Shown here: positions 26,280-27,425 of the stretch, in pieces
How the letters are laid out: each line of letters starts with the position of its first letter
How positions within the stretch are numbered: the first letter of the stretch is position 1
Origin: Polyangiales bacterium
Lineage (GTDB): Bacteria; Myxococcota_A; Polyangia; Polyangiales; Ga0077539
Assembly (NCBI GenBank): GCA_044229975.1
Contig: JBGARZ010000003.1
Location: 64,001-128,000 of the forward strand
DNA length: 64,000 nt
Direction: 5' to 3'
Translations under genes and position numbers: made by a program
Notes under the pieces: model-generated
Databases searched by the model: none
Seen by the model: the letters and a program-made list of their open reading frames with translations, nothing else
What the model was told of the DNA's origin: nothing

Positions 26280-27425
26280 ATGGACTCCACACGCCGTCAC
26301 CTGCTGACGCTCGGTCTCGGCGCCGTCACCCTCGGCGCCGCCCGCGCCGCCGCGCAGCCCATCCCGTACGTCAACGGTGCTGTCCCCGCGAACCCCTTCG
26401 GCGAAGACCCACCCGCGCGACCCGCCGCCGCCGACGCGGGGACGCTCACGACGCCCGACGCCACCGTCGACGCTGGCGCCGCGCCCGATGTCCCTGCCCC
26501 CGATGTCCCTGCCCCCGATGTACCCGCGCCGACACCCGTCGTCGCAGTCACCGAACCGACCCCGCCTGCGGTGCCGCCCAACCCCTTCGAGTCATCGATC
26601 CGTCGCTACGGCGAGCTCCCCGAGGAGGACATCGTCCGCGCTCTGACCACGGGCTCCATCCTGTCGGCGCGCAACGTCGGCAACACCTCGGTCAATCTCC
26701 GCTGCGACCTCGACGGGCCCATCGATGGGGCGTTCAAGCCCGCCGAGACGCGGCACGTCGACCACTGGCGCGCCGAGATTGGCGCCTTCCGCGTGGCGCA
26801 GCTCCTCGGCCTCGACCGCGTGCCGCCCGCCGTCTTCCGACGCGTCGCCCGCACCGAGCTCGCGGGCGTCGAGGCGGGGCGTCTCCTCTTCCGCGACGGC
26901 TGGGCCCGCGGCGCGATGATCTACTGGGTCCCGGTGCTGCGCCGCGCCGGCATCTTCTCGGGCGCCGCGCTCACCGAATGGACCAACCACCTCGTGGTCG
27001 GCGTCGACATCCCGCCCGACGGCCGACGCCGCGCCGAGGAGATCTCCACCCTCATCTCCTACGACTTCATCATCGGCAACTGGGACCGCTGGCACGGCAC
27101 CAACACCCTCGTCGATGCCCGCGGGCAGCTCTGCTACCGCGACAACAACGGCGGCTTCCTCGAACCCATGCCCCGCTGGAAGATGGAAATCATCTTCTCG
27201 TTCTTGCAGCGCTCGCAGCGCTTCTCGCGCACCTTCGTCGAGCACGTGCGCGCCATGTCCCTCGCGGGCCTGCGCCGCGCCATCGCCGCCGACGCCGACG
27301 GCCGGGAGCCGCTGCTCAACGAGGTCCAGCTCCGCGCCATGGTGCGACGGCGCGCGACGTACCTCGAATACGTCGACGCCCTCGTCGGCATCCATGGCGC
27401 CGCCGAAGTGCTCTGCTTCGACTGA
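26280..27425 (+). CDS. Tat-exported atypical kinase with Fam20C/Four-jointed-like motifs
   Basis: STRRHLL twin-Arg signal ending in AAA; Pro-rich linker; AFKP, EIGAFRVAQLLGLDRVPP, YDFIIGNWDR, YRDNNGGF. Confidence 0.75.
   Translation: MDSTRRHLLTLGLGAVTLGAARAAAQPIPYVNGAVPANPFGEDPPARPAAADAGTLTTPDATVDAGAAPDVPAPDVPAPDVPAPTPVVAVTEPTPPAVPPNPFESSIRRYGELPEEDIVRALTTGSILSARNVGNTSVNLRCDLDGPIDGAFKPAETRHVDHWRAEIGAFRVAQLLGLDRVPPAVFRRVARTELAGVEAGRLLFRDGWARGAMIYWVPVLRRAGIFSGAALTEWTNHLVVGVDIPPDGRRRAEEISTLISYDFIIGNWDRWHGTNTLVDARGQLCYRDNNGGFLEPMPRWKMEIIFSFLQRSQRFSRTFVEHVRAMSLAGLRRAIAADADGREPLLNEVQLRAMVRRRATYLEYVDALVGIHGAAEVLCFD
26484..26528 (+). repeat. 15-bp tandem repeat, 3 copies (PDVPA)
   Basis: cccgatgtccctgcc twice, then cccgatgtacccgcg. 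Confidence 0.85.

Follow-up and report, generated by a model that had tools for sequence, protein, structure and literature searches.

The kinase gene described here, P0001, occupies 26280..27425 on the forward strand of the window, by which we mean the whole 64,000-nt stretch of Polyangiales DNA that was analysed, and encodes a protein of 381 aa. The predicted signal peptide (aa 1-25; 26280..26354, +) carries T-R-R-H-L-L, a hydrophobic h-region and an AxA site before Q26, and is likely a Tat signal. It is followed by a Pro/Ala/Asp-rich linker (aa 26-103; 26355..26588, +) with three copies of PDVPA, the length of which varies among orthologues, and by a Fam20-like kinase domain of 278 aa (aa 104-381; 26589..27422, +). 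The ORF and every motif quoted in the initial annotation are present: TRRHLL at aa 4-9, AAA/Q at aa 23-26 and the PDVPA repeats at aa 69-84, and, in the kinase domain, AFKP at aa 151-154, AEIGAF..RVPPAVFR at aa 165-187, YDFIIGNWDRW at aa 261-271 and YRDNNGGF at aa 286-293. GC content by codon position is 0.73/0.52/0.91, and dN/dS of the kinase domain is 0.20-0.29 against all five orthologues compared, indicating that ORF 26280-27425 is a real gene; it evolves under purifying selection. The start site is the same in orthologues. We looked for a promoter-like site on the strand of the kinase gene and for a terminator-like site, and found neither. Just 5-7% of the words were present in the six RNA runs searched. 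In the comparison of four of these runs, X1 and X2 contained contigs from relatives (~87-91% identical) that spanned a large part of the kinase domain, such contigs being no proof of transcription.

We derived residue equivalences from the hydra Fam20 numbering, as given in PMC5865150, and from an alignment based on a 92-sequence profile, and counted conservation over 264 proteins, comprising 120 close homologues and 144 distant representatives. Lys133, Glu157, Asp299 and Asp318 of hydra Fam20 align with K153, E166, D269 and D288 of P0001. The Gly-loop G134-N135-T136-S137 (26679..26690, +) aligns to the G-T-Q of Fam20, and its G, T and S are found in 120/120 close homologues. Lys153 of strand beta3 (26736..26738, +) is Lys in 118/120 close homologues and 120/144 representatives, and Glu166 of helix alphaC, which is encoded together with Asp161 within 26760..26777 (+), is E or D in 264/264 proteins. 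Asp269 and Asn275 of the catalytic loop (27084..27104, +) are each present in 120/120 and 140/144 proteins, and the metal-binding Asp288 (27141..27143, +), which lies in a DNNGGF motif corresponding to DNxRGF/DNAKSF of Fam20, in 120/120 and 142/144. All five K/E/D/N/D residues are kept in 118/120 close homologues and 118/144 representatives (236/264 in total). Thus, the catalytic Lys, Glu and Asp and the metal-binding Asp, which had been proposed to be intact, are both aligned and conserved. Asp161 precedes E166 by five residues, the same spacing as in Fam20, in a loop 11 residues shorter than that of hydra, and possibly corresponds to the additional acidic residue required by Fam20C (hydra Asp152, human Glu306); this position is acidic in 115/120 close homologues but in only 12/144 distant representatives, the acidic residue being absent in 132/144. 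N275 is at +6 from the catalytic Asp, whereas Fam20 has Glu at +5. A catalytic-loop Asn acts as metal ligand in PI3K/PI4K-type kinases, and by analogy N275 would be the second metal ligand of P0001; this Asn resembles that of the group of PI4K-II, CtkA, HipA, actin-fragmin kinase and CotH. An aromatic residue (W/F/Y) comes directly after the catalytic DR in 120/120 close homologues and 132/144 distant members.

Fam20 proteins are the closest solved relatives of the kinase domain by both sequence and fold. With the single domain as phmmer query, FAM20A was matched in the PDB at E 6.5e-6, hydra Fam20 at 1.6e-3 and human FAM20C at 4.8e-3; five of the chains matched were Fam20 (E 6.5e-6 to 0.1), and a sixth, unrelated one was matched at 0.99. 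The likeness to Fam20 is thus greater than expected by chance. Six Fam20 chains were retrieved with a profile of 92 close sequences (E 2e-19 to 5e-11), and six with a second profile, for which we used 130 of the 144 new distant representatives (E 8e-26 to 2e-16), the latter also giving PI4K-II at 0.25. Foldseek searches with the AF2 model (pLDDT 94.8) placed Fam20 chains at ranks 1-28 (E 1e-11), with PI4K-II next. Among 48,161 chains compared with VIA-align, hydra Fam20 (5xom) scored Z 21.9 with an rmsd of 3.4 over 262 aligned residues, zebrafish Fam20C 21.6 and C. elegans Fam20 20.6; scores outside Fam20 were 16.8 for PI4K-II, 14.1 for CtkA, 12.2 for actin-fragmin kinase, 11.8 for HipA and 11.6 for CotH. 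Hence, these four approaches agree with the Fam20-type fold and homology first claimed, and the best structural match is Fam20 rather than a cytoplasmic HipA or PI4K family. P0001 alone scored 13.5 bits against the Pfam Fam20C model (PF06702), under the gathering cut-off of 26.8; the cut-off was passed by two members of another subfamily, L025 (42.2) and L026 (29.3), of which one matches human FAM20C on its own at E 4.6e-12. The FAM198 Pfam model gave weak matches in 5/130 representatives, and the CotH model matched neither P0001 nor any of the 130. The structure match lists contained neither FJX1 nor FAM198 chains, an absence that does not exclude kinship.

P0001 shares with Fam20C (PDB 5yh3, 5yh0, 4kqa) the fold (Z 21.6, 20.6), N-terminal targeting out of the cytoplasm (predicted for P0001), the motif order FKP / EIxAF..RVPP / DFxxGNxDR / DNxxGF and a C-terminal PxL..RR helix. 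However, the bacterial domain has ~278 aa, as opposed to ~390-420 solved residues in Fam20C, and lacks the Fam20C motifs D/N-F/H-F-Y-F-S/T-D, C-D/S-Y-Y-C and, for dimerisation, F-x-S-P; the first of these corresponds to an alignment gap. The Clash3 Arg that serves the protein substrate of Fam20C (Arg390 of ceFam20) is Gly291 in P0001; hence, S-x-E specificity is not expected. The setting also differs, being the Golgi lumen for Fam20C and, as predicted, the bacterial envelope for P0001. Neither the four disulfides nor the Cys-rich N-lobe insertion of Fam20, as described in PMC5865150, is present in the bacterial family: 145 of the 264 domains contain no Cys, none contains more than three, and the insertion is an alignment gap. 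The hydra Fam20 xylosylkinase, of the Fam20B type (5xom, 5xoo), is the top structural match; Lys133, Asp299, Asp318 and the Gly-loop Thr are kept, and it is like P0001 in lacking the Fam20C dimer motifs. In contrast, its Gal-Xyl pocket (Tyr148-Tyr151, Tyr214, Tyr253, His301, Lys321) is missing or changed in P0001, His301 being Trp and Lys321 Gly. The Fam20A pseudokinase, which is the best match to the single sequence, has Gln where P0001 has Asp. PI4K type II, CtkA, HipA, actin-fragmin kinase and CotH belong to the same atypical kinase branch as P0001, but the sequence likeness of PI4K-II is near chance, and the other four are not among the matches listed. CotH, the known bacterial precedent for a distant relative of Fam20C, acts on spore-coat proteins according to PMC7821199, but is far more distant. 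Given that the bacterial kinase lacks the Cys-rich insertion, the disulfides and the Fam20C motifs for substrate binding and dimerisation, and that the Fam20B sugar contacts are absent or changed, we conclude that it represents a sister family to Fam20 and falls outside Fam20A, B and C. This sister family probably works like a Fam20 kinase.

The source genome contains five copies of the kinase family, and 39 of 40 relatives were matched. In a sample of the phylum, with 10 candidates scored per genome such that misses are soft, we detected matches in 27 of 34 genomes from the order, in the 4/4 listed for the remainder of the class, and in 23 of 162 others. Small genomes are included: those of 2.7-3.3 Mb carry two family genes and one of 1.8 Mb carries one. 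After clustering at 50%, 380 representatives had E<=1e-30, and the number rose to 2451 with E<=0.001; we examined the best 150 of the 2451. Named records come from Polyangiales, Polyangiaceae, Sandaracinaceae and Myxococcales MAGs and from Labilithrix luteola (DSM 27648, locus L136). Neighbours in the ESM Atlas were Myxococcota clusters, including one of 258 members with the automatic name Fam20-domain, and a weaker, PI3/4K-like cluster from Acidobacteriota. None of 40 pattern matches on viral contigs was a relative of the family, and PF06702 matched 0 of 14 control genomes. We conclude that the family is large and centred on the Polyangia. A tree was made from 117 bacterial sequences only.

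One paralogue (G000:C23:405352-406332, the same as L004:7353-8177 on the minus strand, with orthologues at L160-L172) heads a subfamily of lipoproteins in which Gln replaces the beta3 Lys and the catalytic loop has a vicinal Cys-Cys, in 14/14 sequences. Its fold is alike in the predicted model, which has low confidence at the catalytic loop. We predict from these replacements that the paralogue is a pseudokinase, in parallel to Fam20A, and possibly one that is redox-switched. Pseudokinases would thus occur in both the Fam20A group and the bacterial family, the bacterial one having lost the Lys instead. A separate, order-wide subfamily (L025-L034) has a GGRS Gly-loop and a longer insert before the C-lobe, is the nearest to animal Fam20C by Pfam and phmmer, and at several loci lies directly upstream of genes for a PAD_porph deiminase and a CN hydrolase.

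We called N-terminal signals with a hydropathy and regular-expression heuristic rather than SignalP, setting aside 22 short sequences. By this heuristic, and counting full-length proteins, the N-terminus is hydrophobic in 106 of 115 close homologues and in 111 of 127 representatives (217/242 in total); 52 of the latter 111 also have a lipobox-like Cys. A twin-Arg motif is present in 15 of the 16 closest proteins, in one of 104 other close homologues and in none of 144 distant representatives. Curated Tat-signal models gave no NCBIfam match in 20/20 proteins and no Pfam match in P0001, short motifs of this kind often escaping HMMER filters; TatC is present in the genome (E 3.5e-66). The same domain is preceded in different members by a Sec-like signal, a lipobox, a twin-Arg motif or a TM anchor. 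Most family members are therefore predicted to be exported or anchored, and those outside the closest clade look like Sec substrates, lipoproteins or membrane-anchored proteins; Tat export is likely limited to the closest clade. Of the original proposal that the kinase is exported by Tat, export extends to the whole family, with its signal peptides, lipoboxes and anchors, whereas Tat as a general trait does not, being confined to one small clade. The trait common to the family thus appears to be a location outside the cytoplasm.

We also found long forms: ORFs of 720-1255 aa whose kinase domain is C-terminal and preceded by a CxxC..CxxC ribbon and a long linker. These occur in a distant family of the same phylum (20/20 genomes) and in one further genome. 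A TM segment precedes the kinase domain in six of seven long forms checked, which places the kinase domain outside the cytoplasm. The layout at L041-L045, L047 and L050 is a Zn-ribbon, a low-complexity linker, a weak GYF_2-like stretch (E 0.09-0.13 in 2/5 segments, a lead only), a TM segment, TPR-like helices and the kinase domain; we take it to resemble that of gliding-motility membrane proteins. The catalytic motifs are degenerate in the longest of these proteins (L042, L044 and L050), with the catalytic Asp replaced by Glu or the metal Asp lost. No homologue of 796-2270 aa was found among 7996 scored candidates, in what was a weak search, as long forms do exist.

Analysis of 93 loci indicated that neighbouring genes are subfamily-specific and housekeeping-like. 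The P0001 subfamily is accompanied by genes for a thioesterase, a Gld-like ABC transporter, a YbjN-like protein and a sigma54 two-component pair, and other subfamilies by an alpha/beta hydrolase and an S41 peptidase, by a cytochrome c assembly protein and an acyl-CoA dehydrogenase, or by agmatine-pathway-like enzymes. We detected no partner, substrate, immunity or secretion gene common to all subfamilies across the 93 loci, and the neighbouring genes do not point to a substrate. It had been suggested that the acidic linkers of neighbouring lipoproteins are substrates. The lipoprotein-like gene at 18484-19326 (+), with Asp/Ala/Gly repeats, a small Cys-rich module and DGG repeats, encodes no S-x-E site, and its 10 S/T-x-D/E sites are no excess over the 8.3 in shuffled sequences. 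These counts, and the lack of a neighbour common across subfamilies, speak against that suggestion. A YbjN/CesT-like gene (27430-27846, -) lies downstream of the kinase gene in convergent orientation. Its homologues also lie no more than a few genes away from another kinase subfamily (L130, L152, L157, L038), which suggests old synteny.

We propose, at a probability of about 0.5, that P0001 is an exported Fam20-like kinase that would use metal-ATP to phosphorylate macromolecules of the cell's own envelope, most likely Ser/Thr of periplasmic or envelope proteins. P0001 is probably an active kinase. Cleavage of the signal after Ala25 would leave a flexible linker and a soluble periplasmic domain, in which ATP would be held by Lys153 and Glu166, perhaps with Asp161, and Mn/Mg by Asp288 and Asn275, with Asp269 serving as the base. 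As the Fam20B sugar-pocket loops are lost, the cleft should be open and thus able to take a large substrate. ATP would be drawn from a micromolar periplasmic pool or from lysed cells, and its supply is the weak step of the proposal. A review (PMC7432876) puts periplasmic ATP in E. coli at ~24 uM and reports ATP in vesicles, and also states that there is no known pathway by which ATP crosses the inner membrane and that phosphatases of the periplasm hydrolyse it. Retention of the family in 39/40 relatives and in small genomes suits a housekeeping role. Among envelope macromolecules, we favour protein over glycan by about 3:2, since the sugar pocket is gone. An active exported kinase might instead act on a small sugar or a lipid head group, in the manner of Fam20B or PI4K-II, and we consider this unlikely. 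The top fold match is a glycan kinase, hydra 5xom, tied with Fam20C (Z 21.9 and 21.6) and with PI4K-II next at 16.8; many members are lipid-anchored; the aromatic residue after the catalytic DR could stack a sugar; and the basal, oldest animal Fam20s are xylose kinases (glycan kinases) according to PMC5865150. However, the sugar contacts of hydra Fam20 are deleted or changed in P0001, the sequence likeness to PI4K-II amounts to just E 0.25, and no glycan-synthesis cluster recurs nearby, DUF2079 (5 loci) and NAGPA (4 loci) flanking one other subfamily only.

It is similarly doubtful that the protein, having bound a nucleotide in the periplasm, serves in sensing or as a scaffold, or carries out a reaction such as ATP hydrolysis or nucleotidyl transfer in place of phosphorylation. 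ATP is scarce outside the cytoplasm, and the family has degenerate members, namely the Lys-to-Gln subfamily and the longest membrane-fused forms, but the full catalytic set is retained in 236/264 proteins, P0001 included. Myxobacteria are predators, and the kinase could be released onto prey and phosphorylate prey targets with prey ATP, as the initial annotation had suggested. The closest clade has a cleavable signal without a lipid anchor, a YbjN/CesT-like gene is convergent downstream, and lysis frees ATP, as stated in PMC7432876. Against this, roughly one distant member in two resembles a lipoprotein and others carry a TM anchor, neither secretion nor immunity genes recur, the gene is steadily retained across the order under purifying selection, and Sec or Tat export stops at the producer's own periplasm. 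Steady retention and frequent anchoring in the producer's envelope favour a role on self over one on prey, and we regard action on prey as improbable. Lastly, the domain could belong to a cytoplasmic kinase like HipA, CtkA or SCO1664, with an N-terminus that is no working signal. HipA_2 matches 44 of 130 representatives (E<=0.01; best 6e-8), TIGR03843 matches 3/20 proteins weakly, and no Tat model is matched; yet at the same threshold Fam20C matches 53 of the 130 (best 4e-11), HipA and CtkA reach only Z 11.8 and 14.1 as compared with 21.9 for Fam20, and Sec-like signals, lipoboxes, twin-Arg motifs and TM anchors all lead the same domain. A cytoplasmic kinase is hence very improbable.

ATP-dependent phosphorylation in Gram-negative bacteria is regarded as cytoplasmic, and bacterial protein kinases are not expected to act in the cell envelope. 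Since the P0001 family is kept order-wide and in the cultured Labilithrix luteola DSM 27648, envelope phosphorylation and its ATP supply are directly testable. The family also bears on the origin of the Golgi kinases, and the bacterial domain, as a minimal, disulfide-free Fam20 scaffold, shows what animals have added for recognition of sugar or S-x-E. In literature searches, which did not reach most subscription papers, we found no paper characterising an exported Fam20-like bacterial family. The word 'bacteri' is absent from PMC5865150 and occurs once, in a reference, in the review PMC7948968. Reviews treat the Golgi Fam20 kinases as animal proteins (PMC7948968), and a survey of Legionella (PMC9758233) describes FAM20 as specific to eukaryotes or Metazoa, with four Legionella families positioned close to the FAM20/CotH group. 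A 2026 preprint (bioRxiv 10.64898/2026.05.08.723234) lists FAM20B among up to five possible contributions of Myxococcota to endomembrane functions of LECA, with an equivocal signal. Given this mention of FAM20B and the Fam20-named Myxococcota cluster in the ESM Atlas, 'undescribed', the word used initially for this system, is too strong; the family is uncharacterised but not unseen. A wider scenario is that several exported Fam20-like kinases with periplasmic ATP phosphorylate envelope proteins or glycans in Polyangia, are tuned by the Lys-to-Gln pseudokinase lipoprotein as Fam20A tunes Fam20C, and belong to the bacterial family from which eukaryotes obtained their Fam20 secretory kinases; taken jointly, we consider these proposals speculative and unlikely all to hold.

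Several other features of the window were noted. A four-gene Gld-type ABC operon (21039-25633, -), encoding an ATPase, an ABC-2 permease, an ABC_transp_aux/DUF7088 protein and a DUF4340 protein, is syntenic with the kinase in close relatives only. A sigma-70-like promoter (TTGACT-16-TAGGAT; 25715-25688, -) is found upstream of this operon, one site as against a mean of 0.0 in shuffled sequence. The gene at 19333-20598 (-) is lipoprotein-like and has a weak vWA match. The ORF at 32737-34512 (-) is Ser/Thr-kinase-like with a C-terminal TM segment; by eye, its N-terminal domain seems to be without the usual Lys and HRD/DFG, and it is a possible pseudokinase.
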